A stretch of DNA of 64,000 nt from a virus: positions 1 through 64,000 of IMG/VR virus record IMGVR_UViG_3300017963_007659; one strand, written 5' to 3'. The position numbers were made by a program, and so were the translations under genes. Shown here in pieces: positions 2,137 to 28,933 of this stretch. How positions within the stretch are numbered: position 1 is the first letter of the stretch; each line of letters opens with the position of its first letter. The notes under the pieces were generated by a model. The model made no database searches, was not told the DNA's origin, and was given only the letters and a program-made list of their open reading frames with translations.

Positions 2137-3285
2137 ATGGCGAATCCCGTTGTAACTCTTACCAAAGATGCTCCGAAGAGTACCGTAGCTCCGAAGAGCG
2201 CACCCTCCAATGCTCCTATCCCGAAGAAGGTGATAGACGATCCCGCGATCCGTGAGAGAGTCAACGCTCCCAAAGGGAAACTCCGATTCCTCGGTCACGG
2301 TATGTACGCCAACGTGTACGACCTCGGAGATGGGCGAGTCCTGAAGCTCACGAGAGACAAGAAAGATGCGTTCGCATTCGCCAACGTCCTCCATCGACCC
2401 TCTCCCGCGTTCGCTGTGACTCTGGATGTCTTCCAGCTTCCTGGAAAACCCAGAATATATGGAATCGTATCAGAGAAGCTCAAGCCTTTGGGAGCCAAGG
2501 AAGAAGCTGAGTGGAATGTATTCTCAGCTCTCTTCTTCTATAGGATGATCTATCCTCTGACCTATCAGGCCAATGGGATCAACTCCACATGGGCCAAGTG
2601 GGTCAAGAAGGTCCTCGACATGTGGACCAATCACGTGGTTCAGGTTGGTTGGGAGCAGCAAGACTTCCGGATGTGGCCTTTCGATGAAGGGCTCTGGATG
2701 GAACGCTTCAATCCTGGTGTCATCGACGCTATCAACACAGCCAACCTCATCGATGATTCCAAAGCGAAGTTCTTGGTTCAGGTAGCCAAGGCTTTGGAGC
2801 ACGCTCGCATCAAGTGGTGGGACCTCCACGACCAGAACATCATGCGAAGAGGTGGCGGAAAACGCATCGTCGTCGCAGATCTTGGTCTCAGCATCTCCCC
2901 GAAGGTCAAGATTCCTGTCTTGGGTAAGAGCACAGGACCGCGTGTGTTCGACGTGGCTGCGGCTGCTGAGAAGCTGGAGGGGGAAGACCAGGTGGTCGTA
3001 GCGGGAGACGAGACTCTTGAAGAGCTGGCTGAGAAGGTCCAACTCTACGCCTCGAAGCTCAAGCCGGTCACCCCGAAGCCCATCACTCCGAAACCCATGG
3101 TCAATACGCTGACGGCAAACATGCAGCAAGCTATCCGAGACCATGAGGACCGCACCATCTTCCAGTTCATCGATGATGCGGCGAAGGAAGCTGCCTTCCA
3201 ACGCAAGGTAGTCCAGGGCACTGAGAAGAAGCCTACGAAGGAAGCCATATTCACTTCAGAGACCTTGGTTGTCGTAGAAGACTGA
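2137..3285 (+). CDS. minimal protein-kinase-fold protein K1 with C-terminal extension
   Basis: LGHGMYANVY / VLKLT / WWDLHDQNIM / VADLG motifs. Confidence 0.85.
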   Translation: MANPVVTLTKDAPKSTVAPKSAPSNAPIPKKVIDDPAIRERVNAPKGKLRFLGHGMYANVYDLGDGRVLKLTRDKKDAFAFANVLHRPSPAFAVTLDVFQLPGKPRIYGIVSEKLKPLGAKEEAEWNVFSALFFYRMIYPLTYQANGINSTWAKWVKKVLDMWTNHVVQVGWEQQDFRMWPFDEGLWMERFNPGVIDAINTANLIDDSKAKFLVQVAKALEHARIKWWDLHDQNIMRRGGGKRIVVADLGLSISPKVKIPVLGKSTGPRVFDVAAAAEKLEGEDQVVVAGDETLEELAEKVQLYASKLKPVTPKPITPKPMVNTLTANMQQAIRDHEDRTIFQFIDDAAKEAAFQRKVVQGTEKKPTKEAIFTSETLVVVED

Positions 3286-3310
3286 ACCTCTCATTCTTGA
3301 AGGAGCCGCG

Positions 3311-3958
3311 ATGGCTCGAACTCTCGAACAGGCTATTGAACTGAGGGCCAAGCAAGGTGGGGGTGGGTTCACCCCCTCACAGCTCCGCACTATAGTTGAC
3401 GCTACGCTAAAAGAGGTGGATGCGACAGACGAGTCCCAACTCAAGTTCTTGGGCCAAGGATTCTTCGGGGACGTCTTCTGGTTGGGCGATAAGCGTAAAG
3501 TGCTGAAGCTCACCAACGACTACACCGACGCCTATGCCTCCGAGATTGTTCGCAGGAAGCCAGACAAGAACCTCGTCAAGGTCTATCAGGTGTTCGCTCT
3601 CGCGGACAGCTACCCAGCCGTCATCGGTATCGTCAACGAAAAGCTCTCCCCTCTTGCAAGTCACGAGCGAGCGAAGTTGGACTATCTCCGGAAGCTGTGG
3701 AACAAAGCCATAGGACAGCGTACCTTCCTCACCCGACAGAACCTCGACAAGTTCGTCGACTCCCCTCAGATAGAAGAGGTCGACGATGCGGACTACGGTC
3801 TCCTCTCGACGCTGGTGAGAGTGTTCACCGACCGGCATATCAAATGGCGAGACTTGAGCGGGGACAACATCATGGCGCGGGGACGGGAGAAGGTGGTTTC
3901 CGACCTCGGTTTCTCTGAATCCTTGAAGCAACCGATCCCGGTGCTGGTGAGGTTGTGA
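3311..3958 (+). CDS. minimal protein-kinase-fold protein K2
   Basis: LGQGFFGDVFW / VLKLT / WRDLSGDNIM / VSDLG. Confidence 0.85.
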   Translation: MARTLEQAIELRAKQGGGGFTPSQLRTIVDATLKEVDATDESQLKFLGQGFFGDVFWLGDKRKVLKLTNDYTDAYASEIVRRKPDKNLVKVYQVFALADSYPAVIGIVNEKLSPLASHERAKLDYLRKLWNKAIGQRTFLTRQNLDKFVDSPQIEEVDDADYGLLSTLVRVFTDRHIKWRDLSGDNIMARGREKVVSDLGFSESLKQPIPVLVRL

Positions 3959-4638
3959 TGACGAGCATAGCCGCAGAAAAGCTCCTCCTTCCATACTATG
4001 GGGAAGACTCCCCGAAGGTAGTCCAAACAATTGTTGACCATCTCGGAGAGAAGGACGGCAACTGGAAGTGGTTGGGAGAAGGCTCCTTCGCGAACGTCTA
4101 CTGGCTCCACGACAAAAAGAAGGCGCTGAAAATCACTCGTGACCGCAACGACGCCGATGCTTCTGAAATCATGCGGAATAAACCAGACCGCTCCGTTGTG
4201 AAAGTATACGATGTCTTCGCTCTGCCAAAGCAATACACAGACCTCTGGGGAATCGTCGTCGAGAAGCTCTCTCCGCTCAGCTACAAGGAAGGGGAAGCGA
4301 TAGCTAATCTCTACAATCTCTTATGGGACCTTGGCATAGACCAGACCCCAACCATGAAGCATGTCAAGGAGTTCAAAGAGAGGCTGGAGAACCCAGATCC
4401 CAAGAAGCACCCTATAGACAAATACATACAAGAGTACTACGACAAGAGTGGCGTCACCGAAGAGATGATCGACCGCTGGGAGACATGGGCCAAGGTCCTG
4501 GACTCCAGACACATCTACTGGAAAGACTTCAAACCAGCTAATGTCATGTCGCGCGGTCGAAATATGGTCATCTCAGATTTGGGCTACAGCAAAGTACCAC
4601 ACCAGAAGATCCCCGAGCTTCAAGTATCGGAGACGTAA
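3958..4638 (+). CDS. minimal protein-kinase-fold protein K3
   Basis: LGEGSFANVYW / ALKIT / WKDFKPANVM / ISDLG; TGATG coupling to K2. Confidence 0.85.
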   Translation: MTSIAAEKLLLPYYGEDSPKVVQTIVDHLGEKDGNWKWLGEGSFANVYWLHDKKKALKITRDRNDADASEIMRNKPDRSVVKVYDVFALPKQYTDLWGIVVEKLSPLSYKEGEAIANLYNLLWDLGIDQTPTMKHVKEFKERLENPDPKKHPIDKYIQEYYDKSGVTEEMIDRWETWAKVLDSRHIYWKDFKPANVMSRGRNMVISDLGYSKVPHQKIPELQVSET

Positions 4639-5303
4639 TGTCCATCCCTATCCTCAAAGCTCTCAGTAACAATACAGGTGAAGCAGAGTTAGCCCTGGAA
4701 GCAATAGGGCAGCGCTTGGATATAGACCCTAGAGATTACAAACGCTTCCAATGGATTGGGCACGGAGCGTATGCCGAAGTCTACTGGATTCCGGATCGAA
4801 AGCGTGTACTCAAGATCACACGTGACAATGAGGATGCTAACGTCTCTCGGTTAGTACAGAAGAAACCAGACAAAGCCTTCGTCAAAGTATATGATGTATT
4901 CGAGGTCTTCTCTTATCGTTGGGGTATCGTAGCAGAGAAGCTCACACCGATGAGCAATAGCTTGGAAATGAGCTTTGGCAGGTGTCTAGCCCTGTGTACG
5001 TTTTTGGATATAGAAGTGGTTCCTATCTCCGACATCCTAGAATTCTTCCATGATCCTAAAGTCTTGGACCAACCGGAAGTCATTGACGAGATGAAAGCTG
5101 TGAGGGTATCGCGAGAGGAAGTTGAGAGCTTCTTGAAGACACTCAGAAAATGGGAGCGGGCCTTAGACGCGCGGAATATCTTCTGGAAAGATGTCAAACC
5201 ATCCAATGTCATGATGCGAGGACGGGAACTGGTCATTTCTGACCTCGGCTACAGTGAAGCCCCACACCAGAAGATCCCCGAGCTTCAAGTATCAGGTGTA
5301 TGA
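4638..5303 (+). CDS. minimal protein-kinase-fold protein K4
   Basis: IGHGAYAEVYW / VLKIT / WKDVKPSNVM / ISDLG; TAATG coupling. Confidence 0.85.
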   Translation: MSIPILKALSNNTGEAELALEAIGQRLDIDPRDYKRFQWIGHGAYAEVYWIPDRKRVLKITRDNEDANVSRLVQKKPDKAFVKVYDVFEVFSYRWGIVAEKLTPMSNSLEMSFGRCLALCTFLDIEVVPISDILEFFHDPKVLDQPEVIDEMKAVRVSREEVESFLKTLRKWERALDARNIFWKDVKPSNVMMRGRELVISDLGYSEAPHQKIPELQVSGV

Positions 5304-5968
5304 TGCAGTGGACTTTTCCAAGAGCCTTGAATATGAAGCTCTCTGACGGGGAAGACTCCTCCGAGCTGTCCGAAGACAATCCTATTCTTGAAGCCATCCT
5401 ACAGAGACTAGGAGAGCGACAATCAAACAACTTGAAATTTCTTGGGGTTGGAGGGAATGCCTTTGCTTACTGGATGAGCGACAAACGGAAAGTCTTCAAG
5501 ATTACAGGAGACAAAACAGATGCGTATACTTCTCTGGTAGTCAGCCATAACCCATCGAAATACATAATAAAAGTACACGACGTTTTTGCTATAGATGAAA
5601 AAAAGTACATTTGGGGTATAGTAACAGAAAAGTTGACTCCGCTCACGGCAGAAGCGAAGAAGAGTCTCAAGAGGATCATCAGCATCTGTGAAGCGCAGTC
5701 TCTGACAAGGACAAACCGCCTCCTTGAAGCCCGCATAAAGTATCAAGAGAACCTTTTGTTGTCTGGAGAAAAGGCGCAAGTGACGCAAGAAGATTTGGAC
5801 CTTTTGCAACATTATATCAATGACTTAGATGCCCGTGGTATCCGATGGGGTGCCGACTTTTATCCAGATAACGTTCTCATGCGCCGACAGACCCCTGTCA
5901 TCTCTGATTTAGGAGTCAGCAGCTCCCCACGGATGTCGATGCCTAAGCTTCAAGTATCGGAGACGTAA
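5300..5968 (+). CDS. minimal protein-kinase-fold protein K5
   Basis: LGVGGNAFAYW / VFKIT / WGADFYPDNVL / ISDLG. Confidence 0.8.
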   Translation: MMQWTFPRALNMKLSDGEDSSELSEDNPILEAILQRLGERQSNNLKFLGVGGNAFAYWMSDKRKVFKITGDKTDAYTSLVVSHNPSKYIIKVHDVFAIDEKKYIWGIVTEKLTPLTAEAKKSLKRIISICEAQSLTRTNRLLEARIKYQENLLLSGEKAQVTQEDLDLLQHYINDLDARGIRWGADFYPDNVLMRRQTPVISDLGVSSSPRMSMPKLQVSET

Positions 5969-6660
5969 TGTCTGCCTTTGAATACATTATTAGGCGCAAG
6001 CTAGACGATGTAAACCTCTTACAGAAGGTGGACTTGGACGCGATTCTTGAAGATATCAAGATGCGGCTGGGGGAGAAAGACCTCGCGAGAATTGGGAATT
6101 TAGGCTCTGGAAGCTGGGCTTCCGTTTTCTGGCTATCCAATAGACGCAAAGTCGTCAAGGTCACGCATGACCCACAGGATGCTCAGGCGTCAGCGGTCGT
6201 CCTCAAACGCCCAAGCAAGTACCTCGTCAAAACTTATGATGTCTTCGCTCTCACTCCTGACAAATATACCGTCTACTGCATCGTCAACGAGAAGTTGACT
6301 CCTCTGGGACGCAGAGAAGAGCTACTCATCCCTGTCTTATTGCGTCTCTTGAAACAGAGCGGGCAGAATCACAGCATCACTATGGAAACCTATGATGCGA
6401 TTATAAAGCTGTTGGAGAAATTTCGCGGACGCGACTGGAAGTCCTGGCTGAATTCCTATCTGGCGGCACAACACCTGAACATGGACGCGGACAGTTTCAT
6501 GGACTTCTACAAGAATATGGCGGAAGCCCTCGACTCCCGTGGTATCCGTTGGTGGGATATCAAGAAAGCCAACTTCATGATGCGGGGACATCAGATCGTC
6601 ATCTCCGACCTCGGAGCTGGTACGGTAACAGGAGCCCCGAAGATCCCCTCCCTCACCTGA
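5968..6660 (+). CDS. minimal protein-kinase-fold protein K6
   Basis: LGSGSWASVFW / VVKVT / WWDIKKANFM / ISDLG. Confidence 0.85.
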   Translation: MSAFEYIIRRKLDDVNLLQKVDLDAILEDIKMRLGEKDLARIGNLGSGSWASVFWLSNRRKVVKVTHDPQDAQASAVVLKRPSKYLVKTYDVFALTPDKYTVYCIVNEKLTPLGRREELLIPVLLRLLKQSGQNHSITMETYDAIIKLLEKFRGRDWKSWLNSYLAAQHLNMDADSFMDFYKNMAEALDSRGIRWWDIKKANFMMRGHQIVISDLGAGTVTGAPKIPSLT

Positions 6661-7074: not shown

Positions 7075-7114
7075 TAAGTTATCTAGTAGAGAATTCTTGT
7101 ATTTGGAGTTGAGC

Positions 7115-8077
7115 ATGAACACGTCAGACGTCGCGAAGGTAGCTCTCAAGCTTCTTGAAGCTGGAATGAAGGATGAGGCACAGCAGATTCTTGAAGGGGC
7201 TACGAAGGTGGCTTTCGGATGGAAGAAGCTCCCCAAACATTTCCCTCAGTCCGGATTGGAGTGGCAGGAGTTTCTTATCACTCTCAACGATATCCTCGTG
7301 AAAAACAAGCACCAACGAGGACGCATTCCGTATATCAAGAACAGTGTCTACAAGAAAGATGTCATCGACCCCATATTCGAGAACATCATTGCCTACAAGA
7401 AGAAGCAGCCCTGGTTCCGCTTGCAGAAGCACTCCTCTGCGCAACTCATAAAGGACCTTCAAAGGTCTCCGCACTGGAGACTGTTCGAGAAATCAGGGAA
7501 GAGGGTTCTCTTTACCACAAAAAAGGAAGCCAAGGATCGTATCTCCAAGAGGGATGACCTGGTGTTCGTAGCAGACGTGCGCCCCACCAAGGACATTGTT
7601 GCTCTGTATCTTGCGCACCTAGAGGTGCTAGGCACCCCTCTGTTCCCTCTTCTGAACCAATTTGATAGAATACCAACGAAGACTGAAGGGTATCCAGAGG
7701 GAACTGCCTTCCATTGGGTATTCGATGACACCGTAATGGGGAATGACCCAACTCTTGAAAGGGGGCATGACGCTGCGGGCATTGCTGTTTGGATCGTTCA
7801 GAAAGACCCTTCAAGTAGGCAGCAGTACAAAGAGACGGTACAAGAAATGCTGTCACGTGTGCTCGACCACGCACAAGGACAGGCACGTACAGCCTATGAA
7901 CACAGCGACACCCAAGTTCCTTACAAGGAGTGGTTGAAAACCTTCTATTATGATGTCTTCTTTGACCACGAGAGCTACTCGAAGCTTCACCCTTATGACA
8001 AAAAGCTCTTGAAGTCATTTTTCGAGCCTCAAACAAAATATGGTTTCTATATGGGACTAACAATCTCATCCTTGTAG
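7115..8077 (+). CDS. leader-family protein (KLLEAGMKDEA leader), unknown function
   Basis: Start MNTSDVAK at 7115 behind GGAG; leader shared with 8086, 8956, 10180. Confidence 0.7.
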   Translation: MNTSDVAKVALKLLEAGMKDEAQQILEGATKVAFGWKKLPKHFPQSGLEWQEFLITLNDILVKNKHQRGRIPYIKNSVYKKDVIDPIFENIIAYKKKQPWFRLQKHSSAQLIKDLQRSPHWRLFEKSGKRVLFTTKKEAKDRISKRDDLVFVADVRPTKDIVALYLAHLEVLGTPLFPLLNQFDRIPTKTEGYPEGTAFHWVFDDTVMGNDPTLERGHDAAGIAVWIVQKDPSSRQQYKETVQEMLSRVLDHAQGQARTAYEHSDTQVPYKEWLKTFYYDVFFDHESYSKLHPYDKKLLKSFFEPQTKYGFYMGLTISSL

Positions 8078-8085
8078 AGGACACC

Positions 8086-8952
8086 ATGAGACACGCCAGA
8101 GTAGCCAAGACGGTTCTCAAGCTTCTTGAAGCGGGCTACAAGAATGAAGCTCAACAGCTTCTTCTCTCCTCGATTAGGGCTGCGAGCCAAGGCACACAGA
8201 TGTTGAAGGGCCTCCTCTCCTACCTGTCCATGTCAGAACTTGATCGTCACATTGAACTGATATACGGGTCAGAATTCTTTGTGAGAGAGTATTCGTCAGT
8301 CATCCAACAGACTCTTGCAGACCCTAAAGTTTCTCCGAAAGCCAAGCAGGAGCTGTCCTCCCTTTCTGATGACACATATCTGACGGAGCTGTCCCAACAG
8401 ACGATCGAAACGGTAGCGAAGCACATTACTGAGAAGGAACTACAACAAATCCTATCCGCTATTGAGAGATATGAACCCGGTGAAACCCCCCTCTGGGCCG
8501 CCGCCAGTCTCAATTCTAACCGTATTCAAAAAGGATGGCTTCTTCATCGAACAAATAATGCCGACCAGATAGAATCAAACGGATTCCTGTATGGGATTGA
8601 GGACATGCGTCTTCTAGCGCTCACAACTCATATAGGAGACGCCTACAAGAAACAGGGGGGCTACAACTTCGCCTTCACACCCAAGGACTTCAAGCACTAC
8701 GGTAGGCGAGGGCATTATGGGGATGAACTAATTCTGTTCTACGCTCCCTATGTCTACATGCACCATTATGCCGATGACGAGCCTCAAGCCGTCTTCTGGG
8801 GGAAAGATGCTGAACACATCCAGCAGGTCTATGAGGATGATGGGTATTACACTATTCTTGTAGAAGACAAAGATGGGGAAGAAGACGAAGTTGAAGTCTC
8901 TGATATAGCGGACCTCATCGATGTGGTAAGAAAATCAACAGGGAAGCGTTAA
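8086..8952 (+). CDS. leader-family protein with ADP-ribosyltransferase-like C-terminal domain
   Basis: KLLEAGYKNEA leader; WLLHRTNNADQIESNGF...GGYNFAF resembles the H-T..I..G signature of the ART fold. Confidence 0.5.
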   Translation: MRHARVAKTVLKLLEAGYKNEAQQLLLSSIRAASQGTQMLKGLLSYLSMSELDRHIELIYGSEFFVREYSSVIQQTLADPKVSPKAKQELSSLSDDTYLTELSQQTIETVAKHITEKELQQILSAIERYEPGETPLWAAASLNSNRIQKGWLLHRTNNADQIESNGFLYGIEDMRLLALTTHIGDAYKKQGGYNFAFTPKDFKHYGRRGHYGDELILFYAPYVYMHHYADDEPQAVFWGKDAEHIQQVYEDDGYYTILVEDKDGEEDEVEVSDIADLIDVVRKSTGKR

Positions 8953-8955
8953 GTT

Positions 8956-10149
8956 ATGAATATTCATAAACTTGCCAAAGTCAGTCTTCAGATTCTTGAA
9001 GCGGGCTACAAGAATCACGCTCTCCGTCTCCTCCATGCATCCCTTCACACAGCCGTCTTCTACCGTGAGACACCTGTGGACCCCTCTACCGACGTCGTAG
9101 ACCTCTTCACACGGGACTTGAAGCGTCACCATGACACCCGTAGGAGCTTCATAGAGGTCAAGCCCTTCTTCCGCAACCCCAAGATGTGGGCTCCCTTCCA
9201 AGGCAGAATCAAAGGCGCGGACGAGAAGCACCTCGCCTACTGGGTAGACAAGGCTAAGGACCTCGGTATCGCTCTGGAGAAGTCCCACATGTGGGAATAC
9301 CGTCCTTCCATCCCTGGAGGGATAGGACGTCACTACTTCGTCTCGAAGAGGACCATGGGCCACAGGGAGCTGGTCTTCGTTCTGGAGCTGAACATCTCCT
9401 ACAACCGCTTCGTCCTCTCCATCCGTCCTCTGGAGGAGCTGTACGAAACCACCGTGGAAGACGAGGAAGAGGAAGAGGAGATCTGGGAAGAGTTTCTTGA
9501 AGGTGGGGACATCGACCTCGACGTCTTCAAAAAGAAGGCGGAAGAGGATAAGATCTCCTTCGAGGTTATCAAACTTCTCAATGACGATATCGTCTACTTC
9601 TTCAAGATTGGTGACAAGAAGTACATCGCGGATCTCGACAACGCGGGTAAGGTGCTGACGGGTCTCGAAGCTGAGTCCTGGTTGAACAGCAGCCTCGACA
9701 ACGCGGAGGACCTCACTGAAATCGACCCCGACCTGGACCTCACAGACTTCTGGAATAGCCCTTCAACGCTCTACCACGCGACGGACCACGACAACATCGA
9801 ATCCATCATGGAAAGTGGTCTCCAATTGGAGAGCAAGACCCGTGGGATGACGAACCGTTGGATGGGAGCTTCGGTCTTCACCTCCACCAACCCGGAAGCC
9901 ATCCACTCCTACGGTGATACCATCTTGGAGATCGACACCGAAGCCATGAAGCGAGACGGCTACACTCCCCGTGTCGAATTGGAGCCTGGGATTGTAGAGT
10001 ACGAAGCTGCGCGGAGCCTCCTCTCTTGGTTCGACATGGACGAAGGGGACTATCCCCTGGAAGACCCAGCCAATACGGACGGGGTGGATCGCGAGACGAT
10101 CATCCTGAACGGTCCTGTTCCTGCTAAGTACCTGACGGTCATGGACTGA
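8956..10149 (+). CDS. leader-family protein with Tpt1/KptA-like ADP-ribosyltransferase-fold domain
   Basis: QILEAGYKNHA leader; TLYHATDHDNIESIMESGL...SVFTSTNPE...ILEID...VPAKYL. Confidence 0.6.
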   Translation: MNIHKLAKVSLQILEAGYKNHALRLLHASLHTAVFYRETPVDPSTDVVDLFTRDLKRHHDTRRSFIEVKPFFRNPKMWAPFQGRIKGADEKHLAYWVDKAKDLGIALEKSHMWEYRPSIPGGIGRHYFVSKRTMGHRELVFVLELNISYNRFVLSIRPLEELYETTVEDEEEEEEIWEEFLEGGDIDLDVFKKKAEEDKISFEVIKLLNDDIVYFFKIGDKKYIADLDNAGKVLTGLEAESWLNSSLDNAEDLTEIDPDLDLTDFWNSPSTLYHATDHDNIESIMESGLQLESKTRGMTNRWMGASVFTSTNPEAIHSYGDTILEIDTEAMKRDGYTPRVELEPGIVEYEAARSLLSWFDMDEGDYPLEDPANTDGVDRETIILNGPVPAKYLTVMD

Positions 10150-10179
10150 CCTGCCCGCCAAGAGTTATCTATACCCAAG

Positions 10180-11757
10180 ATGACTCTGTATTTCCACAAA
10201 ATTGCGACCATAGCGACCAAGCTTCTTGAAGCGGGCTACAAGAATGAGTCTCTCCGTCTCCTTCGTGCCACACTACGCAAGGAGCAGCTACCGGACCAAT
10301 CCCTAGCAGCTCTCATCATAAAGTCCCTCCAGCGAAACCCCACGCAGCGACACTACGCTAGAGAGGTGAAGCGACTCTTGAAGGATGAGCGCTTCTTGGA
10401 GCCCTTCCAGGGGAAGTTTCACGCTCACTCCCCCATGCAGAACGTGTACTACACCTACGACGTCCTTTCTCTGCTCAAAGAGTTGAAGTCCTCGCAGGTC
10501 TGGCGACCCATCCAACCTGCACCTGGAGCCCAACCTGGTATCCACTACGTGACCACGAAGGTCTTCGGTGGGGACAGCGTGGTTCTTGTAGCTGAGGTCC
10601 TAGGGAAGAGGGAAGCGCCTGTGCGGCTCTTCATGTCTCCTCTCGACCAGATAGAAGCGGCGGAAAACGAGTCAAAGGATCCTGTGGAGCTTCTGGAGGA
10701 GCGCTTCCCTGGGAAGGGGTGGAGCGCTGCCCCACTCCTCGTAGATTATACAGGAGAGCGCATCGTCTGTGGAGGTCGTGATCCGCGCTTCGAGAGGCGA
10801 GGGATGGAAGCCTTCGATATGGATGAGCTTGGATTCCCAGGGCTCTACGGAGTCCATGTAGGAGATGCCAACGAGTGGCTTTGTGTCCTCGAACGAGACG
10901 GTTTCTGTGACGGAGACGCCTACATCTACGAGATTGACTTCGAGTCATGGAACCGCAAGCATCCGGACAAGCCTTTTGTTGCCATCGACGACCCCCATCC
11001 TGTGGACAAAGACTCTGTAGGGTGGTCAGCGATCGTCTTCTCCGAGATGAAGACCATACCCGCTGAGATTGTCAAACTGCGAGAGAAGATCCCCTTCCAG
11101 AAGGTCCTTGAGGAGTGCGACCCCGAAGCTGCCTACGATGAGTATGGCGAGCCTACAGAATGGTATGGGTCTTCCCAACGAGTCCCCGTTTACTCCTCCT
11201 TGGTCTATCTCTCCCGCACCAAGCACAGAGGACTCAACTCCGAGTGTGATAGGGTCCAAGACCTCACCCAGGAGGTCAAGGATGGAGACCGTTCAGCTAT
11301 CCAGCAGGCAGCCTCCATGCTCGCGCACCATCCTGGGTTGAGGGGCTTCAAGGGTTGGGTCGTACCAGCTCCTCGGTCCAAGGCGGGTAGTCCCTCGAAC
11401 ATGGTGCTCGCCAAAACTCTTGTAGACCAAGGGATTGGCGTCAAGGCTGTAGATATGGTCCAGAGGATCAAGGATATCGAGTCTTCAAGAATGAGGCGAA
11501 GAGACAAAGGTGTGGATGGCGGGACGACTCTTGAAGAGCACTTGCAATCGATGGGCTTTGTTGGTAGAGTAGCAGACCAAGGGGTGCTCATCGTGGATGA
11601 CATCTTCACCACCGGAGCTACTCTCAAAGCGGTCGCTCTGACGATGCGTAAAGCGGGCTACAAGAGTCCTATCTCCGCTGCTGCCCTTGGGTACTACAGA
11701 CCAGACGCGCGCAGTGCCGAGGACTGTCCCGTCCACCACAGAACCTTCTACGTGTAA
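10180..11757 (+). CDS. leader-family multidomain protein with C-terminal ComF-like type I phosphoribosyltransferase
   Basis: KLLEAGYKNES leader; PRPP-binding loop VLIVDDIFTTGATL; central domain with YEID..DDP..IP motif like the ART-like domains. Confidence 0.7.
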   Translation: MTLYFHKIATIATKLLEAGYKNESLRLLRATLRKEQLPDQSLAALIIKSLQRNPTQRHYAREVKRLLKDERFLEPFQGKFHAHSPMQNVYYTYDVLSLLKELKSSQVWRPIQPAPGAQPGIHYVTTKVFGGDSVVLVAEVLGKREAPVRLFMSPLDQIEAAENESKDPVELLEERFPGKGWSAAPLLVDYTGERIVCGGRDPRFERRGMEAFDMDELGFPGLYGVHVGDANEWLCVLERDGFCDGDAYIYEIDFESWNRKHPDKPFVAIDDPHPVDKDSVGWSAIVFSEMKTIPAEIVKLREKIPFQKVLEECDPEAAYDEYGEPTEWYGSSQRVPVYSSLVYLSRTKHRGLNSECDRVQDLTQEVKDGDRSAIQQAASMLAHHPGLRGFKGWVVPAPRSKAGSPSNMVLAKTLVDQGIGVKAVDMVQRIKDIESSRMRRRDKGVDGGTTLEEHLQSMGFVGRVADQGVLIVDDIFTTGATLKAVALTMRKAGYKSPISAAALGYYRPDARSAEDCPVHHRTFYV

Positions 11758-11760: not shown

Positions 11761-12447
11761 ATGACTGACTTTCCACGATATCTTCAGCGCGCTCTCGACA
11801 AAGTAGGCGTTCATCTCTATCAAGAGCACTATGGCAAGGAGCCACTGGACTTTGATACCTTCCTCCAAGCTATCGCTACAAGAATCGGCGAAAGGAACAT
11901 CAGGAAGATCAAAGAGATAGGTCACGGGTATTCCGGGACTGTCTTCTGGCTATCTGATAGGAAGAAAGTCCTGAAAGTAACGTCAGCCCAAAGCGATGCC
12001 TATGCCTCCTCCTCAGTCAAGAGGAAGCCGAGTCGAGCCCTCGTCAAGACGTATGATGTCTTCGCGGCGACGGACGACACGACCTTCTACAATCTCTACT
12101 TCATCGTCAACGAAAAACTCACGCCCCTCGCTGGACCTCCTTTCCTCAAAGTGGAGCGGCTCATCAATCTCGTTCGTCGAGCTGATGACTATATCAGCCC
12201 TGTCAACATGGCCAACTACAAGAAACTGCGGGAAGAAGTCGCCAACAGGGAAGACTTGCAAGAGGACTTCGAGGATAGTGACAATCTCTTGGACCTCTAC
12301 AAGAGTTGGGCTGAAGCGCTCGATGCGCACCGCATCATCTTCAATGACCTGAAAACGGAGAATGTGATGCTGCGAGGGCGCGACATTGTCATCGCCGATC
12401 TTGGGGGAACGGCTCCGTCAACCGAAATTCCTTCCATTACTGATTGA
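11761..12447 (+). CDS. minimal protein-kinase-fold protein K7
   Basis: IGHGYSGTVFW / VLKVT / FNDLKTENVM / IADLG. Confidence 0.85.
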   Translation: MTDFPRYLQRALDKVGVHLYQEHYGKEPLDFDTFLQAIATRIGERNIRKIKEIGHGYSGTVFWLSDRKKVLKVTSAQSDAYASSSVKRKPSRALVKTYDVFAATDDTTFYNLYFIVNEKLTPLAGPPFLKVERLINLVRRADDYISPVNMANYKKLREEVANREDLQEDFEDSDNLLDLYKSWAEALDAHRIIFNDLKTENVMLRGRDIVIADLGGTAPSTEIPSITD

Positions 12448-13183: not shown

Positions 13184-13185
13184 GT

Positions 13186-13881
13186 ATGCAATTTGAAACG
13201 GCTCTGGGTAAAGTCCTCATGCTCTATTCTCTCCGCGACCAGGAGGTGCGAGAGGACTTCGAGTTCTACAAGAATGCCATCCTGACCCGCGTTGGAGCCA
13301 AAGAACCCACCGACCTCAAGTTTCTTGGACAGGGCATGAACGGCTATGTGTTCTGGTTGCCAGACAAGAAACGAGTCTTGAAGCTCACGGTGGATGAGGG
13401 GGACGCGAACGCCTCTGAAGTCATTCGGAAAAAGCCAGACCGAAACCTCATAAAGGTCCACGACGTGTTTACCTTCGGTCTTCCTCACTGGCGGCAATCG
13501 TGGGGGATTGTATCGGAGAAACTGCGCCCCTTGTCCAGGAGCGAAGAAGAAAGCTGGCGCTGGATTGTACAGATGAGCACGGGGCAGTACCGTAAGTTCT
13601 GGGCTCCTCGAATGGACGCTCTAGACCAGAAGTGGGTCGATGCGATAGATGCGTGGACCACCAGCGATGACGCAAAATACATCCCTGGGTTGGTCGAAGC
13701 CATAGAGGAGCATCACCACACTCTGGAGACATGGGCGAAGCTCCTCAAGAATCGTGGAATCATCTGGGGTGACCTGAACTTGGGCAACATTATGCACAGA
13801 GGTGCTGTGCCTCTCATCTCCGACGTTGGAGGAGGGTATGCTCCTTCCCAGCATCTACCACAGTTGACACCAGAGGACTGA
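13186..13881 (+). CDS. minimal protein-kinase-fold protein K9
   Basis: LGQGMNGYVFW / VLKLT / WGDLNLGNIM / ISDVG. Confidence 0.85.
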   Translation: MQFETALGKVLMLYSLRDQEVREDFEFYKNAILTRVGAKEPTDLKFLGQGMNGYVFWLPDKKRVLKLTVDEGDANASEVIRKKPDRNLIKVHDVFTFGLPHWRQSWGIVSEKLRPLSRSEEESWRWIVQMSTGQYRKFWAPRMDALDQKWVDAIDAWTTSDDAKYIPGLVEAIEEHHHTLETWAKLLKNRGIIWGDLNLGNIMHRGAVPLISDVGGGYAPSQHLPQLTPED

Positions 13882-18561: not shown

Positions 18562-19254
18562 GTGATGTCTGAGGTTGAGAAATTCGGCGAGACCATCGGG
18601 TTCATTCTCCGTAAGAACGCCCTCCCTAGAGCAGGTCGGGAGCGCTCCGAGGCGATAGCTGAAGCCATCTTCGAGAGGCTTGGGGAGACCAAGGCTCCTT
18701 CTGACCTTGGACGGGGGAGCTACGCCAACGTCTACTGGCTCAAGGGCAACCGCAAGAGAATCTTGAAAATCACGAGCGACTCCAGCGATGCGTTCGCTCT
18801 GAAGCACCTACAAGAATCCCCCAAGAAGTCCCTCGTCAAGGTCCACGACGTCTTCGAGATCGTTCCGAAGCATCTGTGGGGAGCTGTGACGGAGAAGCTG
18901 TCCCCTCTCTCGTCCACAGAGTACGACAACTGGCAGCAACTTCGTGAGATGCTTGAAGAAGATGAGGCTTTCTATGATGTCGAGAGGACCCTCGGTCGAG
19001 AAGGCGTGACAACGCGGTACTTCTATCTCTTGGAGCAAGCGAAAGAAAAAGCAGGCACCGTCCTCCCTACCGACAAAATGCTTGAGAGCATCTTCAAGTG
19101 GGGGAAGGACCTGTCCTCCCTTGGAATCAAATTCACCGACCTGACGGAAGACAACATCATGAAGAAGGGGGCGAACGACATCCTCATCGATCTCGGCTAC
19201 AGCGATGTCCGTCCTACAAGAATCCCTGCTCTCCAGGGAGAGGGCATACACTAA
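18562..19254 (+). CDS. minimal protein-kinase-fold protein K14
   Basis: LGRGSYANVYW / ILKIT / FTDLTEDNIM / LIDLG. Confidence 0.85.
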   Translation: MMSEVEKFGETIGFILRKNALPRAGRERSEAIAEAIFERLGETKAPSDLGRGSYANVYWLKGNRKRILKITSDSSDAFALKHLQESPKKSLVKVHDVFEIVPKHLWGAVTEKLSPLSSTEYDNWQQLREMLEEDEAFYDVERTLGREGVTTRYFYLLEQAKEKAGTVLPTDKMLESIFKWGKDLSSLGIKFTDLTEDNIMKKGANDILIDLGYSDVRPTRIPALQGEGIH

Positions 19255-19982: not shown

Positions 19983-20762
19983 ATGACTTTCGACCGAGAC
20001 TTCCAACATCTACTCTCCATGTCCGGAGCTTCCAAAGGACTATCTTCCTCACTTATTCCGGCTATTCTGGAGCGAATAGGAGAGTCCACAGTCCCAACGC
20101 AACAACTAGGGCATGGGAAGTTTGCTGTAGCTTTTTGGCTCAAGCAGAAGCGTAAAAGGGTCCTGAAGATTACGAGAGATGTGGAGGACGCCTACGCTAT
20201 GCAACGGGTCAAAGACCGTCCACAGAAGCATCTCGTCAAAGTATATGACGTATTTGAGATTGTAGAACATCGCCTCTGGGGAATTGTTGCTGAGAAGCTC
20301 ACTCCGATGGACTACGAAGAGAAAGATGCGTGGCAAGAGCTTTGGAATATACTTTCAAGCGAGGAATATGCGTATCTCGGGGATGAGCTAGTACAAAACG
20401 GCTTGACCCCTGGGTTCGCGGATGAGGTAGTAGACGCCATAGAGAATCCCATCGATGACGGTGAAGAGGACGAGGAAGACGAAGACGTCTGGGATCGTCA
20501 CTTCTATGAGGTCCCTGAAGATGATATCCTTGACGCGCTGCGTAATTGGGGGAAAGAGTTGAGTGCGCTCAATATCAAGTTCTATGACTTCCATCCAGGG
20601 AACATCATGATGAGACGGCACGACTACATTCTTGTAGATCTAGGGTATGGAGCAGTTCCACATACAAAGGTCCCAGAATTGGATATTGGGCAAGAAGGAT
20701 ACCAGTATCCCTTGAAGTTCAGCCAGGCGGCAGCTACAAGAATCCCAAAACTGCAAGAATAG
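19983..20762 (+). CDS. minimal protein-kinase-fold protein K15
   Basis: LGHGKFAVAFW / VLKIT / FYDFHPGNIM / LVDLG. Confidence 0.85.
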   Translation: MTFDRDFQHLLSMSGASKGLSSSLIPAILERIGESTVPTQQLGHGKFAVAFWLKQKRKRVLKITRDVEDAYAMQRVKDRPQKHLVKVYDVFEIVEHRLWGIVAEKLTPMDYEEKDAWQELWNILSSEEYAYLGDELVQNGLTPGFADEVVDAIENPIDDGEEDEEDEDVWDRHFYEVPEDDILDALRNWGKELSALNIKFYDFHPGNIMMRRHDYILVDLGYGAVPHTKVPELDIGQEGYQYPLKFSQAAATRIPKLQE

Positions 20763-26745: not shown

Positions 26746-27468
26746 ATGGCTACCCCTCTCATCCTCAAACGTGGTCTCGGCAAGTGGTTCAACAACAAGC
26801 TTCTCGCAAGTGGGATGCGCAAGGAAGAGCATCGCATTCGCGTCATGGAGAGCCTCTACGAGCGCATCGGAGAGACAGGAGACAGTCACCTCAAGTTCCT
26901 AGGTGAGGGGATGTATGCTGCTGTAGGATGGCTCCAGCACGACCGCAAGAAGGTCCTCAAGATTACAGCAGACGAAGATGACGCCATGGCGCTAGAGACC
27001 ATCCGGCAACATCCTTCAAAGTTTCTGGTGAAGGTCCATGATGTCTTCCGCATCACACCTCCCAACAAGAAGGGCTACTTCGGGATTGTGGAGGAGAAGC
27101 TCACCCCGCTCGCGCATGATGTAGAAGAGGACTTCTTCCGTGATATGGACTACATGAATGAGGATGTGTGGGGAGTTCCGGCTTCGCTAGGTTCCGTTCC
27201 GGATTTAGACGAAGCATGGGAAAGTCTTGAAGAATTCCTGACGGAGAACAAATACGCCGAAGAATGGCAACGCGGTGTCTATGGTGACATTCTTAAGCAG
27301 TTGGAAGAATGGAATGAAGCTCTCTACAAGAGAGACATCGCCTTCCACGATCTCTCTCCAGGCAACGTTATGATGCGTCGACATGCCTGGGTGCTGATGG
27401 ACTTCGGGCACCACAGCCGCGCTCCCTATCATAGACTTCCCCAGCTCGATATCATTCGATACTCCTAA
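26746..27468 (+). CDS. minimal protein-kinase-fold protein K16
   Basis: LGEGMYAAVGW / VLKIT / FHDLSPGNVM / LMDFG. Confidence 0.85.
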   Translation: MATPLILKRGLGKWFNNKLLASGMRKEEHRIRVMESLYERIGETGDSHLKFLGEGMYAAVGWLQHDRKKVLKITADEDDAMALETIRQHPSKFLVKVHDVFRITPPNKKGYFGIVEEKLTPLAHDVEEDFFRDMDYMNEDVWGVPASLGSVPDLDEAWESLEEFLTENKYAEEWQRGVYGDILKQLEEWNEALYKRDIAFHDLSPGNVMMRRHAWVLMDFGHHSRAPYHRLPQLDIIRYS

Positions 27469-27506
27469 TCCTTCTTCCCTCTGTTATCTATACTTGGAGG
27501 AGACGT

Positions 27507-28193
27507 ATGTCTTCAGGTATGCTTGGTCCCTTCGAGAGATACGCTACAAGAAACGTGATGCACATCTCCGACTCGATTGCTCCAGATGTCTTCGCCAAGA
27601 TCTACGAGCGCATCGGGGAAGACCCCTCCGGCCTCTGGCACCAGGTGTTGGGGAAGGGTTCGACGGCTGTAGCGACGTGGCTCAAGAGCGACAAGACGAA
27701 AGTCCTCAAGATTACAAATGATGAGTCCGACGCCTACGCCATGGAGAAATTCTTGAAGCGCCCGAGTCGTCATGTGGTCAAAGTGTACGACGTCTTCCAG
27801 ATTACGCCTTTCGCTTGGGGCATGGTGGTACAAAAAGTCACACCTTTGGCGTCGAGTGCCTACAAGGATTGGACGAGGACGCGCTCCCTGATCAGTAAGT
27901 TTGTCGGTGTCCCTCCTCTTGGAAATGGAGCCGTCCCTATCTATCAGAAAGATCTTGAAAAGCGATTTGAATACCCAAGCAAGTCTCAGATGGAGCCCTT
28001 GGAGAAGATGAGAGCATTCTTGAAGCAGCTCGCTCTCTTTGACGAGGCTCTAGCAGATCGTGGGATTACATGGTTTCAAGATCTCCATGCTGGCAATGTA
28101 GGCATGAACCGTCGGGACATGGTTCTCTTGGACCTTGGGGGTGTGCGCACTTCTGTTCCTAGTCTCCCGAAGATAGAGGTAGAGGCAGCATGA
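27507..28193 (+). CDS. minimal protein-kinase-fold protein K17
   Basis: LGKGSTAVATW / VLKIT / FQDLHAGNVG / LLDLG. Confidence 0.85.
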   Translation: MSSGMLGPFERYATRNVMHISDSIAPDVFAKIYERIGEDPSGLWHQVLGKGSTAVATWLKSDKTKVLKITNDESDAYAMEKFLKRPSRHVVKVYDVFQITPFAWGMVVQKVTPLASSAYKDWTRTRSLISKFVGVPPLGNGAVPIYQKDLEKRFEYPSKSQMEPLEKMRAFLKQLALFDEALADRGITWFQDLHAGNVGMNRRDMVLLDLGGVRTSVPSLPKIEVEAA

Positions 28194-28933
28194 CGACCGT
28201 TGACCCTCAATTGAAACAAGGTCCTGGCCAACAACTCTATTGGCACATCTACTTGCGTGACGGGAGTGCCCCTCAAGAAGATCAACAGGCGATGGCGTTG
28301 GATATCCTACACGCTCTCTACCGTCGCATCGGGGAAGATGTCAACACAGCCGACCTTCCTCTACTTGGGCACGGAGCAGACGCAGCTATCTACTGGATGA
28401 AGAAAGACAGGAAAAAGGTCCTCAAAATCACGCGTAATGCTCCGGATGCTTGGGCGTTGGAGCTGTTTCGTCGGAAGCCTTCCAAGGATGTCGTCAAGGT
28501 GTATGATGTCTTTCAGATCTTCCCGAAGGAGAAAAGGAATACTCTCTACGGGATCGTAGAACAGAAGCTCACACCTCTCCACAATGTCGTGGACTTCGCG
28601 GCGAGCTACGATTACGTCAAAGACTACGGTGTTCGCTGGTTGGGTGAAGACACGAACTATGGTGATATCGTACAGCTTCTTGAAGAGGACCGTGCCTTCT
28701 ATGAGAAGGAAGGGAACAAAAAGGAAGCAGACTTCATCGAAAAGACTGTTCTCCCGTTTGCTCATCAGATGGAGAGGTGGAACGACGCTCTCCACAAGAG
28801 AGGCATTGTCTTCAAGGATTTGCACGAAGGCAACGTCATGATGAACCGACATCAGATGGTACTGATGGACCTTGGTAGATCTAAAGTTCAAAGTATGAAG
28901 CTTCCTCTCCTTGACGTACCGAGGAGCACGTAA
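28190..28933 (+). CDS. minimal protein-kinase-fold protein K18
   Basis: LGHGADAAIYW / VLKIT / FKDLHEGNVM / LMDLG. Confidence 0.85.
   Translation: MTTVDPQLKQGPGQQLYWHIYLRDGSAPQEDQQAMALDILHALYRRIGEDVNTADLPLLGHGADAAIYWMKKDRKKVLKITRNAPDAWALELFRRKPSKDVVKVYDVFQIFPKEKRNTLYGIVEQKLTPLHNVVDFAASYDYVKDYGVRWLGEDTNYGDIVQLLEEDRAFYEKEGNKKEADFIEKTVLPFAHQMERWNDALHKRGIVFKDLHEGNVMMNRHQMVLMDLGRSKVQSMKLPLLDVPRST

Follow-up and report, generated by a model that had tools for sequence, protein, structure and literature searches.

A genomic array of diverged, C-lobe-less kinase-like genes in an uncultured marine phage

The 64,000-nt window analyzed here, the first part of a 186,314-bp virus record, comes from an uncultured marine phage of which at least 186 kb are known, and it carries eighteen genes (K1–K18) for small kinase-like proteins. 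All eighteen open reading frames were found on the plus strand at the positions given by the first-pass annotation, with refined starts for K3 (3958), K8 (12455), K11 (14773) and K14 (18565) that agree with the recorded lengths of these protein products. They have the look of real, expressed genes; no RNA run contains the phage. Searching the entire record with K4 recovered all of them together with a nineteenth copy, K19, on the minus strand at 147251–148018. The E-values of the paralogues in this search (1e-22 to 1e-47) exclude chance resemblance among the copies, and the 19 mini-kinase genes occupy ~8% of the known genome. The features of the window are:

889..1308, minus strand: small GNAT acetyltransferase, just upstream of the array and adjoining the ART-PolyVal gene
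2137..3285, plus strand: K1, 382 aa, kinase core (about residues 9–265) and C-terminal extension of ~115 aa
3311..3958, plus strand: K2, 215-aa minimal kinase (alignment, family HMM, motifs; orthologue P0066)
3958..4638, plus strand: K3, 226-aa minimal kinase, DFKPAN catalytic loop (alignment, family HMM, motifs)
4638..5303, plus strand: K4, 221-aa minimal kinase, the copy modelled (AF2, kinase-fold matches)
5300..5968, plus strand: K5, 222-aa minimal kinase (family HMM, motifs; orthologues P0089 and L005:12746-13405)
5968..6660, plus strand: K6, 230-aa minimal kinase (family HMM, motifs; orthologue P0061)
7097..11757, plus strand: four genes that separate kinase blocks 1 and 2, all with an N-terminal 'KLLEAGYKNEA'-type leader
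11761..12447, plus strand: K7, 228-aa minimal kinase (alignment, family HMM, motifs)
12455..13183, plus strand: K8, 242-aa minimal kinase (identical to P0038, 242 aa)
13186..13881, plus strand: K9, 231-aa minimal kinase, DVG (alignment, family HMM, motifs)
13884..14768, plus strand: K10, 294 aa, N-terminal extension of ~85 aa and kinase, DMG (same as P0055; orthologue P0155)
14773..15519, plus strand: K11, 248-aa minimal kinase, DFG (same as P0043, 248 aa, precomputed Pfam APH)
15528..16235, plus strand: K12, 235-aa minimal kinase (alignment, family HMM)
16340..17062, plus strand: K13 kinase domain, residues 1–240 of a 737-aa protein (family HMM E 2e-68)
17063..18553, plus strand: K13 C-terminal part, two ~245-aa repeats, each with an LYH..(R/K)KG(L/F)IP motif
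18565..19254, plus strand: K14, 229-aa minimal kinase (same as P0059; alignment, motifs)
19983..20762, plus strand: K15, 259-aa minimal kinase, acidic insert, duplicated C-terminal (I/V)PxL (same as P0151)
26746..27468, plus strand: K16, 240-aa minimal kinase, DFG (same as P0045; alignment, motifs)
27507..28193, plus strand: K17, 228-aa minimal kinase (same as P0060; alignment, motifs)
28190..28933, plus strand: K18, 247-aa minimal kinase (family HMM; orthologue P0053, 80–89% identity per region)

K1–K18 fall in four co-directional, tightly packed blocks. The proposed joining of K2–K6 is borne out by stop/start overlaps of 1–4 nt (TGATG, TAATG, ATGA), and K17 and K18 are joined likewise; the K3 start codon shares sequence with the stop of K2, and both the JGI and the ENA contig carry a 226-aa gene call there. 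Genes for leader-bearing proteins lie between the kinase blocks. The last of the four leader genes at 7097–11757 encodes a phosphoribosyltransferase domain (Pribosyltran, 28.5 bits), the only match that the four gave in Pfam and PHROG. As a longer contig of this phage shows, the region 4 kb before K1 encodes a 1340-aa protein that matches ART-PolyVal with 46 bits (cut-off 31), and the small GNAT gene, identical to one in L014, scores 20.8 bits with Acetyltransf_1 (cut-off 20.7) and 26.7 bits with Acetyltransf_7 (cut-off 27). These upstream neighbors place the array in a polyvalent-type effector island.

Among the 18 aligned copies, paralogues are 29–42% identical and mean column identity is 33%, with G41, G43, K59, T61, D66, A67, P77, V87, K101, P104, I181, D185, N190, D202, G204 and P214 (K4 numbering) invariant. 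Retention of the Gly loop, the β3 Lys, the catalytic D-x4-N and the D-x-G, as first described, holds for all 18 and also for K19; the αC acid is kept as well, so that G-x-G, K59, D/E66, D185, N190 and D202 do not vary in any of the 19. The catalytic loop of most copies is of the D-x-H-x-G-N type, and a Ser/Thr-kinase-like Lys at D+2 occurs only in K3, K4, K6 and K7. Everything beyond the DFG equivalent is absent, including the activation segment and αF–αI, in agreement with the truncation originally noted. The early stop itself applies to 16 of the 19 copies, which end 16–22 residues past the D of D-x-G; K1 (+135), K15 (+41; its IPxL motif is duplicated) and K13 (+514, with two extra domains) are longer. 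A conserved P-x-(L/I)-(E/Q/D) motif closes each kinase domain. The two extra domains of K13, which are 37% identical to each other (E 5e-54) and give sub-threshold matches to PTS_2-RNA (22 bits, cut-off 26) and PHROG 5470 as well as a poor AF2 model, are possibly of the Tpt1/ADP-ribosyltransferase type, judging from these profiles.

Structure searches place the family in the kinase fold. The AF2 model of K4 (pLDDT 93.7, pTM 0.89) was compared with the PDB, and the best 50 of 500 Foldseek matches at E<=1e-3 are all kinase-fold proteins, mostly protein kinases together with APH(2''). With VIA-align, the best 50 of 48,161 chains are likewise all kinase-fold (Z 7.6–9.8), in alignments that reach residue ~209. 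Hanks kinases form the best rows, and APH(2''), RIO and the 216-aa tRNA 2'-kinase TkArkI rank among the top matches (Z 8.2–8.8), but the Z-scores draw no line between APH or RIO and Hanks kinases. When the 18 copies were searched as a profile, 694 kinase sequences in the PDB matched, and the alignments cover both the Gly loop and the catalytic loop/DFG. Matching to curated profiles gave a divided answer: Pkinase (7 of 18 copies, at most 21 bits where the cut-off is 31.7) and APH (PF01636; 6 of 18) match about equally weakly, and above-threshold support is absent save for the precomputed APH assignment of K11. Pkinase, Kinase-PolyVal and T7-kinase models gave no above-threshold match in the mini-kinase family. 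No relative was detectable in 50,697 isolate phage genomes or found by a pattern scan of the genomes of 185,579 species, and the Atlas clusters nearest to K4 are 100% viral. The family is an unnamed, phage-only one that no curated model captures. Taken alone, its kinase fold and predicted catalytic competence are, in our judgment, very probable.

An assembly origin for the array was considered from the outset. Three assemblies (JGI, ENA and Logan) have the same arrangement, which excludes such an artefact: the JGI contig is 100% identical over 4.7 kb and the ENA contig 99.985% over 13.3 kb, and the Logan contigs, of even depth (~10), break only at a 32-nt repeat common to the 3' ends of K3 and K4. 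The IMG/VR flag 'provirus', a CheckV completeness of 50% and the trimming of the IMG/VR record 7.9 kb short of the longer contig could still suggest misassembly, misbinning or host DNA misjoined to a phage. We consider this vanishingly improbable, given also that the array is free of joints, that collapse or chimerism is impossible at the identity of these paralogues, that the nearest clusters and the species-wide scan gave nothing outside viruses, and that the scanned genes (seven large ones in the last 16 kb of the record and two at its start) contain no bacterial marker.

Related metagenomic phages have smaller arrays, of two to at least seven genes, with the order partly kept: L005 has at least seven (partly in the order seen here), L012 five or six, L006 three and L013 two. 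In a phylogenetic tree, the 19 copies lie inside a 79-member clade and almost all of them are matched by an orthologue of their own elsewhere among the phages, these calls coming from one FastTree tree with weak nodes at K3, K8 and K15 (supports 0.13–0.17). For example, orthologues in L005 are 69% identical for K1 (family HMM E 1e-61, catalytic motifs present) and 53% for K8 (L005:16718-17548), and K11 has as orthologues P0154 and a copy in L005 at 17.6 kb. On this sequence evidence, the family is diversified, as the first-pass annotation had supposed, and old rather than the product of a recent burst. The accompanying claim of catalytic selection also stands, all 19 copies of this phage and 298 of the 306 domains of the wider family having kept the K/D/N/D set despite ~33% identity; against the L005 orthologues, pN (0.21–0.41) lies far below pS (0.81–0.95), which indicates purifying selection. 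Other relatives are fused, with 2–5 kinase domains in giant phage proteins of 1000–2500 aa that sit within phage contigs and also contain CTP_transf_like, InPase (PF18823) and RNA-ligase-like domains. In these proteins, the P-x-(L/I)-(E/Q/D) motif falls exactly at the domain junctions.

What differs most among the paralogues is a helical insert of 56–101 aa between the hinge and the catalytic loop, of which each has its own. Insert identity is 17% among paralogues versus 41% among orthologues (up to 83%), compared with 37% versus 54% for the N-lobe and 40% versus 65% for the C-core. From this pattern, the insert is probably a specificity module.

C-lobe-less kinases were predicted earlier in phage and plasmid polyvalent proteins (Iyer, Burroughs, Anand, de Souza and Aravind, 2017; PMC5512222), a study that also described stand-alone versions and cassette-like neighbors and whose text speaks of kinase domains occurring singly and of clustered loci, with no mention of arrays. 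Like the present family, Kinase-PolyVal (PF18762), the Pfam family of these Ser/Thr/Tyr-type domains, has entirely lost the C-terminal subdomain with the ATP-binding and phosphotransfer residues intact, occurs in phages either within giant multi-enzyme proteins or encoded by stand-alone genes, and has ART and GNAT neighbors and small cassette-like genes near a large polyvalent gene. By contrast, none of the 19 copies reaches its Pfam cut-off (best 18.3 bits, for K13, versus 27), nor do the fused relatives tested; the copies here have no His and no insert before the catalytic Asp, with the long helical insert between hinge and catalytic loop instead; they are 19 separate genes; and they come from marine sediment or seawater rather than from Verrucomicrobia and Bacteroidetes prophages. 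T7 gp0.7 (T7K; PHROG 15752, PF27024) is also a small phage kinase-fold enzyme; it modifies host proteins and disarms defenses through phosphorylation (PMC13645617), and T7-like kinases are among the BFVD structural matches and Atlas neighbors of K4. The sequence link is weak, however (2 of 18 copies at E ~5e-4), T7K has DPV where the copies have D-[LFMV]-G, the copies lack its C-terminal shut-off or DNA-binding domain, and T7-like phages have one promiscuous kinase whereas 19 diverged ones occur here. RIO1/RIO2, Bud32, archaeal ArkI and APH(2'') share the compact fold, the lack of a classical activation loop and the D-x4-N and D-x-G core, with structural Z of 8.1–8.8, and Bud32 and APH models match the copies weakly, but these enzymes keep the post-DFG helices (a substrate- or ribosome-binding subdomain) before which most copies stop. 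Given the earlier stand-alone kinases and the multi-kinase giant proteins among the relatives, the initial claim of novelty was overstated. No gene array of comparable size was found in the literature searched, and the novelty that is left lies in the scale, with 19 separate genes, and in a family outside every curated model.

On whether the targets are proteins, the evidence points both ways. The copies could instead be small-molecule, nucleotide or RNA kinases, with the variable insert as a ligand pocket and with sugars or metabolites for nucleotide activation, NAD-related compounds, immune signaling nucleotides, antibiotics or RNA 2'-OH groups as candidate substrates. Pkinase scores no better than APH, APH(2''), RIO and TkArkI stand among the top structural matches, and the peptide-substrate-binding parts of a Hanks kinase are missing. 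Catalytic loops of the D-x-H-x-G-N type, predominant among the copies, are common in APH, ChoK, ABC1 and RIO-type kinases. Moreover, the fused relatives place kinases beside a HIGH-type nucleotidyltransferase and an inorganic pyrophosphatase, a combination that resembles kinase-to-NDP-activation pathways and also fits small-molecule activation; the fused K13 domains are weakly similar to the RNA 2'-phosphotransferase Tpt1, and the island includes a phosphoribosyltransferase-domain gene. We nevertheless think this reading unlikely. Nineteen different such kinases in one phage would have no precedent and meet no obvious need, neither the C-terminal helical substrate subdomain nor the H-x-D His of APH/ChoK is present, the best structural rows are Hanks kinases, and the identifiable neighbors (ART-PolyVal and GNAT) belong to classes predicted to act on proteins (PMC5512222). 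Polyvalent proteins also mix unrelated effectors, so fusion need not mean a common pathway. Still less probable, to our minds, is that the copies are for the most part redundant, or inactive as enzymes (serving as dosage duplicates, scaffolds, ATP sponges or decoys), and have no distinct targets. Unequal recombination can grow arrays, the K3 and K4 3' ends are 81% identical over 116 nt with an identical 32-mer, and L005 also holds truncated or frameshifted kinase copies; against this stand the invariant catalytic residues, the age of the paralogues with an orthologue for each, the low pN relative to pS, and inserts that are paralogue-specific yet kept between orthologues.

A separate question is delivery. 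The kinases could be packed in the capsid and injected with the DNA instead of being produced early on from the genome once it has entered the cell, an idea compatible with either substrate class that we regard as possible but doubtful. Their relatives are domains of giant polyvalent proteins, predicted to be delivered with DNA (PMC5512222); genes with virion or tail-spike similarity follow directly after the array on the same strand (44–47 kb); and the P-x-(L/I)-(E/Q/D) motif at domain ends and fused junctions could be a candidate processing site. A decamer that lies 27 nt before the K1 start, CTAGTCAAGG, is similar to CTAGTCAAAG/CCAGTCAAAG, which precede three genes of the 37–62 kb region, but this candidate promoter motif has four matches in the window versus 1.3 expected, a count reached by 4 of 100 shuffles. 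The kinases also do without the leader common to neighboring proteins.

To the reading that best explains these observations as a whole, namely competent kinase-like enzymes in an effector island that are targeted by their inserts and phosphorylate host proteins during takeover, we give even credence. The genes and their paralogy, the fold, the conserved residues, the age of the expansion, the genomic context and the fused relatives are shown by the analysis; we infer from them that the proteins are active enzymes, that their substrates are proteins, that the insert sets specificity and that the array has a part in host takeover or counter-defense. In this model, each paralogue would combine a common ATP-binding and phosphotransfer core with its own insert, which would stand in for the absent C-lobe as a substrate-recognition surface. 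The targets would differ from kinase to kinase, host proteins of defense, transcription/translation or signaling being the likeliest, and their phosphorylation would serve takeover of the cell by analogy with T7 gp0.7, but through many specialized enzymes instead of one promiscuous one. The array is probably a toolkit with which the phage would chemically modify many different host targets.

ORF listing and translation of the window reveal 18 co-directional genes with plainly paralogous products, in the places given by the first-pass annotation, and a whole-record search with one of them, K4, recovers all 18 (E 1e-22 to 1e-47 for full-length matches) and adds a nineteenth copy, K19. Intergenic gaps are 0–8 nt, or else neighboring genes overlap by 1–4 nt (TGATG, TAATG, ATGA). 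Together the 19 kinase genes occupy 15.6 kb, or 8.4% of a source record of 186,314 bp that has a CheckV completeness of 50% and the IMG/VR flag 'provirus', its first 64 kb being the window.

Kinase genes of the phage (K1–K18 in the window, K19 elsewhere in the record)
2137-6660, plus strand: block 1, K1–K6
11761-19254, plus strand: block 2, K7–K14
19983-20762, plus strand: block 3, K15
26746-28933, plus strand: block 4, K16–K18
147251-148018, minus strand: K19, from the whole-record search with K4

An assembly artifact, which the first-pass annotation had named as a way in which the array might prove illusory, is excluded. Gene order and sizes are identical in a JGI contig (100% identity over 4.7 kb), in an ENA contig (99.985% identity over 13.3 kb) and in Logan contigs from a sediment run and a seawater run, where depth is even (7.4–10.9) and the sole break point is a 32-nt repeat common to the K3 and K4 3′ ends. 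The two Logan runs resemble one data set filed twice and were therefore counted once. The largest records carrying the phage are 198 and 220 kb, and none of the runs listed as carrying it is RNA. The 3′ ends of K3 (4513-4628) and K4 (5178-5293), which include the shared 32-mer, are 81% identical over 116 nt, and outside these ends the two genes are about 42% identical at the protein level; the likeness may reflect gene conversion or a constraint at the DNA level. A tRNA search of the window found none, a scan for sigma-70 promoters and terminators gave counts near the shuffled expectation and was uninformative, and a Pfam scan of genes at the record ends for host clues returned no useful matches.

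Alignment of the 18 copies (A1; mean column identity 33%) confirms that all of them keep the catalytic residues. In K4 numbering, the invariant positions are G41 and G43 of the Gly loop, the β3 Lys K59 (VLK[IL]T), the acid D66 that starts the next helix, a hinge E-K-L-x-P, the catalytic D185-x4-N190 and D202-x-G204. K19 agrees with this set, such that G41, G43, K59, D66, D185, N190 and D202 are found in 19/19 copies, as are the Gly loop, β3 Lys/αC acid pair, D-x4-N and metal-binding Asp of the PKL fold superfamily. The catalytic loop reads (W/F/L)-x-D without His-Arg, and there is no HRD. In 16 of the 19 copies the protein ends 16–22 residues past D202, just after a conserved (I/L/V)P-x-L; the exceptions are K1 (a 115-aa tail), K15 (a duplicated motif) and K13 (two 245-aa repeats). 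An activation segment ending in APE and an alphaF–alphaI C-lobe are absent.

An AlphaFold2 model of K4 built on A1 (pLDDT 93.7, pTM 0.89) shows a normal N-lobe; some 70 residues of helical structure separate the hinge from the catalytic loop, and the catalytic and metal-binding strands are followed only by a short, confidently placed tail, with no helix past residue 178. Foldseek returned 500 PDB matches at E≤1e-3; of the 50 listed, nearly all are protein kinases (CK2, ERK2, ULK1, CDK-type and CHK2 among them), the remainder being APH(2''). VIA-align, run exhaustively over 48,161 chains, ranked only kinase-fold proteins in its top 50 (Z 7.6–9.8, 120–152 residues aligned), and the alignments always extend to model residue about 209, just past D-x-G. 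Moreover, a profile of the 18 copies matched 694 kinase sequences in the PDB across the Gly loop and the catalytic loop/DFG. The predicted structure thus has the elements of the PKL fold: two lobes, an N-lobe sheet with alphaC, a hinge, and catalytic and metal strands. Because the model and its structural matches show it, the earlier description of a kinase fold cut off after the DFG equivalent is correct.

Family assignment, for which the first-pass annotation had proposed HMM and structure searches, was less straightforward. For Pkinase (PF00069) no copy exceeds the threshold (best 21.1 bits versus 31.7), and matches at E≤0.1 occur in 7/18 copies, solely over the catalytic loop to DFG. APH (PF01636) matches six of 18 copies at E≤0.1 (best 4.3e-6), with a recorded assignment for K11 only; APH/choline-kinase enzymes have H-x-D-x4-N and a C-terminal helical substrate subdomain, whereas the window kinases have neither the His nor the subdomain. 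Bud32 models match one of 18 copies (E 1e-3), and RIO1/RIO2 appear as structural matches only (Z about 8); RIO and Bud32 kinases have helices after the DFG equivalent, but the window kinases end after D-x-G. The T7 gp0.7 kinase family (PHROG 15752; PF27024) matches two of 18 copies (best E 5e-4). The T7 enzyme has DPV in place of DFG and a C-terminal shut-off domain (PMC13645617), in contrast to the D-[LFMV]-G and missing C-terminal domain of the window kinases.

Among the closest described systems is Kinase-PolyVal (PF18762), the C-lobe-less kinase domain of phage polyvalent proteins, whose hallmark, loss of the C-terminal subdomain with a retained active site, is present in the window kinases. 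Giant multi-domain polyvalent proteins are seen for relatives of the window kinases, not for the window genes themselves. No copy scores over its 27-bit cut-off (best 18.3, K13; 2/18 at E≤0.1), and a six-frame search of the record peaked at 12.6 bits with none over the cut-off. In Kinase-PolyVal, as described, the conserved His and Asp of the phosphotransfer motif are separated by an insert, the last N-lobe strand contains a Gln and a Glu precedes strand 2 (PMC5512222). The window kinases have no His before the catalytic Asp; x-E-K-L is the sequence of their last N-lobe strand, where a Q occurs in K17 and K18 alone; and 6/18 copies have a Glu between the two loop Gly residues, the match of these positions to those of Kinase-PolyVal being tentative. 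Lanthionine-synthetase kinase domains, Bud32 and PHROG kinase families, that of T7 gp0.7 included, give marginal matches only, and in the ESM-Atlas the closest clusters are viral without exception, most of them having no name. Because these models are sub-threshold or marginal, the Atlas clusters are viral and isolate phages contain no detectable relative, we treat the window kinases as an unnamed sister family of Kinase-PolyVal in the kinase-like superfamily.

This family is large. A profile search of 1.84 billion cluster representatives gave 2754 matches at E≤1e-3, 857 at E≤1e-10 and 154 at E≤1e-30. Among 160 proteins examined (the best 150 of that search plus ten from a word-index search), 78 contain between two and five full kinase domains, with chain lengths reaching 2500 aa, and such multi-kinase giants make up about half of the best 150. 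One of them, P0001 (1439 aa, six matched stretches), has DNA polymerase A and RecA genes as its neighbors on a phage contig. The giants also bear CTP_transf_like nucleotidyltransferase, 'polyvalent' inorganic pyrophosphatase (InPase, PF18823) and RNA-ligase-like domains, and qualify as polyvalent proteins as Iyer et al. 2017 use the term (PMC5512222). Every kinase in the fused forms ends with P-x-(L/I)-(E/Q), the same motif as in the separate window genes, and thus gene boundaries here coincide with domain boundaries elsewhere. The motif at these junctions, P-x-(L/I)-(E/Q/D), does not agree with a T4-type prohead-protease site, (L/I)-x-E, at the domain ends. Across the wider family, 298 of 306 domains retain the full K/D/N/D set. 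No match was found in 50,697 isolate phage records (array megablast and K3 tblastn), nor any relative in a scan of genome contigs with a closer alignment (A3), which is limited to its pattern and is not proof of absence. Uncaptured by Pfam, PHROGs and NCBIfam and missing from the isolate genomes, the family is invisible to routine annotation and is exposed here.

FastTree analysis of the 306 domains groups the 19 copies within one clade of 79 members, most of them single-domain proteins, from which the fused domains stand apart; almost all copies are each paired with a sister of their own from a different metagenomic phage. Because tree neighbors also tend to be genomic neighbors (K2–K7, K8–K12, K14–K15 and K16–K18), the tree fits array growth by tandem duplication. 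Smaller arrays, sought as the copy-number variation that the first-pass annotation had suggested looking for, occur in related phage loci; L002 is the one related locus searched over its whole record, and copy totals for relatives, L005, L006, L008 and L012 among them, are lower bounds.

Kinase arrays in related metagenomic phage loci
L005: at least seven copies in 10 kb; K1-, K5-, K8- and K11-like copies in the same order, plus two decayed copies
L012: five to six copies in 8 kb
L006: three copies
L013: two copies in 1.8 kb

One decayed L005 copy (10876-11367) lacks the N-terminal third and the other (14885-15420) is split by a frameshift, and thus arrays also lose copies. In L006, a dual-specificity-phosphatase-like gene (5762-6286; weak DSPc match) lies among the three kinase genes, and could be their antagonist or partner. 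Against the L005 orthologues, pN is 0.21–0.41 and pS 0.81–0.95. Because dS is saturated for all pairs, the conclusion is limited to strong constraint, with pN well below pS, in place of the dN/dS that the first-pass annotation had proposed.

Paralogues and orthologues were also compared region by region, each domain being split at the hinge and again at the helix that precedes the catalytic loop.

Sequence identity by region
N-lobe: 37% between paralogues, 54% between orthologues
Helical insert (56–101 aa): 17% between paralogues, 41% and up to 83% between orthologues
C-terminal core: 40% between paralogues, 65% between orthologues

The insert is paralogue-specific yet conserved within orthologue lines. 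As this is the pattern expected of a specificity-determining module, we infer that the insert probably serves as one.

A longer ENA contig of the same phage (L014) supplies 7.9 kb before the first base of the window, lost from the record by IMG/VR 'provirus' trimming.

Other genes and domains at the kinase blocks
L014:1993-6015: protein of 1340 aa encoded 4 kb upstream of K1, its C-terminal domain matching ART-PolyVal (46.2 bits, cut-off 31.2)
Window 889-1308, minus strand: small GNAT
Window 6682-7074 and 23876-25414: two GIY-YIG endonuclease-like genes inside the island
Window 17063-18553: K13 residues 241–737, two 245-aa repeats (37% identical) fused to the kinase

In L005, the protein at the syntenic position (1179 aa) has no Pfam match. 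Polyvalent proteins have been described with ARTs, kinases, GNATs and Pol-β nucleotidyltransferases as their protein-modifying domains, and with small cassette-like genes adjoining a large polyvalent gene (PMC5512222); the island fits such a neighborhood with its kinase component expanded to 18 genes. One GIY-YIG gene combines a LEM-3-type GIY-YIG domain with NUMOD3 and matches a PHROG homing endonuclease family, the other is a weak match, and both are possible drivers of cassette mobility. Four genes that lie between kinase blocks share an N-terminal leader of the 'KLLEAGYKNEA' type, and the last of them also encodes a phosphoribosyltransferase domain. This helical leader, (V)AK(V)xLKLLEAGYKNEA, stands on unrelated proteins at window 7097-11757, 21543-21947, 30541-30909 and 50968-51825; the kinases lack it, and Pfam and PHROGs return nothing for most proteins that bear it.

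Two short DNA words also mark the region. The first, the decamer ATTCTTGWAG, is present in 52 copies, both strands counted (window 198-60731; 0.25 expected); 38 of them fall within the first 28 kb, for the most part in coding regions, and no 10-mers are commoner in the whole record than words related to it (134 copies). Some of these overlap the C-terminal (I/V)PxLQ codons (K14, K15), and a variant, CTTCAAGTAT, lies at the ends of K3, K4, K5 and K11; recombination, homing or modification sites are possibilities. The second word, CTAGTCAAGG, at window 2101-2110, 27 nt upstream of the K1 start, resembles CTAGTCAAAG/CCAGTCAAAG at 37823, 50553 and 62095, positions that all lie shortly upstream of a gene. 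It may be a phage-specific promoter common to K1 and the structural region, a hint bearing on whether the kinases are made early or travel in the virion, although only four matches occur in the window against 1.3 expected.

With the ATP-binding and phosphotransfer core intact and strongly constrained, the kinases are probably catalytically active, with the helical insert selecting the substrate. We favor protein substrates, given the effector-island context, the best structural matches, the T7 precedent and the Lys of Ser/Thr type that K3, K4, K6 and K7 have in the catalytic loop. Substrates may instead be small molecules or RNA, as the D-x-H-x-G-N flavor of most catalytic loops, the APH matches and the nucleotidyltransferase and pyrophosphatase partners of the fused relatives would suggest. 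The repeats of K13 bear on the same alternative. Both carry LYH...(R/K)KG(L/F)IP and have sub-threshold similarity to the Tpt1/KptA RNA 2′-phosphotransferase, an ART-fold enzyme (22 bits versus a cut-off of 26); they have no PDB sequence match, no homologue of 137–438 aa and no paralogue in the genome, and their AlphaFold2 model (pLDDT 54.8) is too poor for structural search. The archaeal ArkI/KptA tRNA system pairs a kinase with a 2′-phosphotransferase, and the K13 fusion may recall it, which we offer only as a lead. Ser/Thr/Tyr depletion, reported for T7-like early proteins, does not discriminate (14.4–14.7% in the first 30 kb versus 18–20% in the structural region and 13–16% elsewhere).

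One tentative reading, to which we give rather less than even weight, is that the phage carries a private 'kinome' of 19 specialized kinases, each aimed by its insert at a different host defense or control protein or immune signal. The set would be kept as orthologous lines across a marine phage clade and be evolutionarily interchangeable with single injected poly-kinase proteins, making phosphorylation a modular, expandable counter-defense rather than the one-enzyme trick of T7. The single kinase of T7 is reported to disarm many bacterial defenses through mass phosphorylation, and the study describing it reports single homologues per genome (PMC13645617); by contrast, this phage has many kinases that combine one invariant catalytic core with a variable, orthologue-conserved insert.

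The suggestion that no phage system of this size had been described holds for scale, as a full-text literature search turned up no phage described as having many kinase genes, but not for kind, since C-lobe-less phage kinases, fused or stand-alone, were predicted in 2017 (PMC5512222). What is new is the scale (19 separate genes), the orthologue-conserved variable insert and a large family missed by curated models. Were each kinase to have a target of its own, the array would be a ready-made panel for identifying bacterial proteins that phages need switched off, as well as a natural experiment on substrate recognition by a kinase without a C-lobe.
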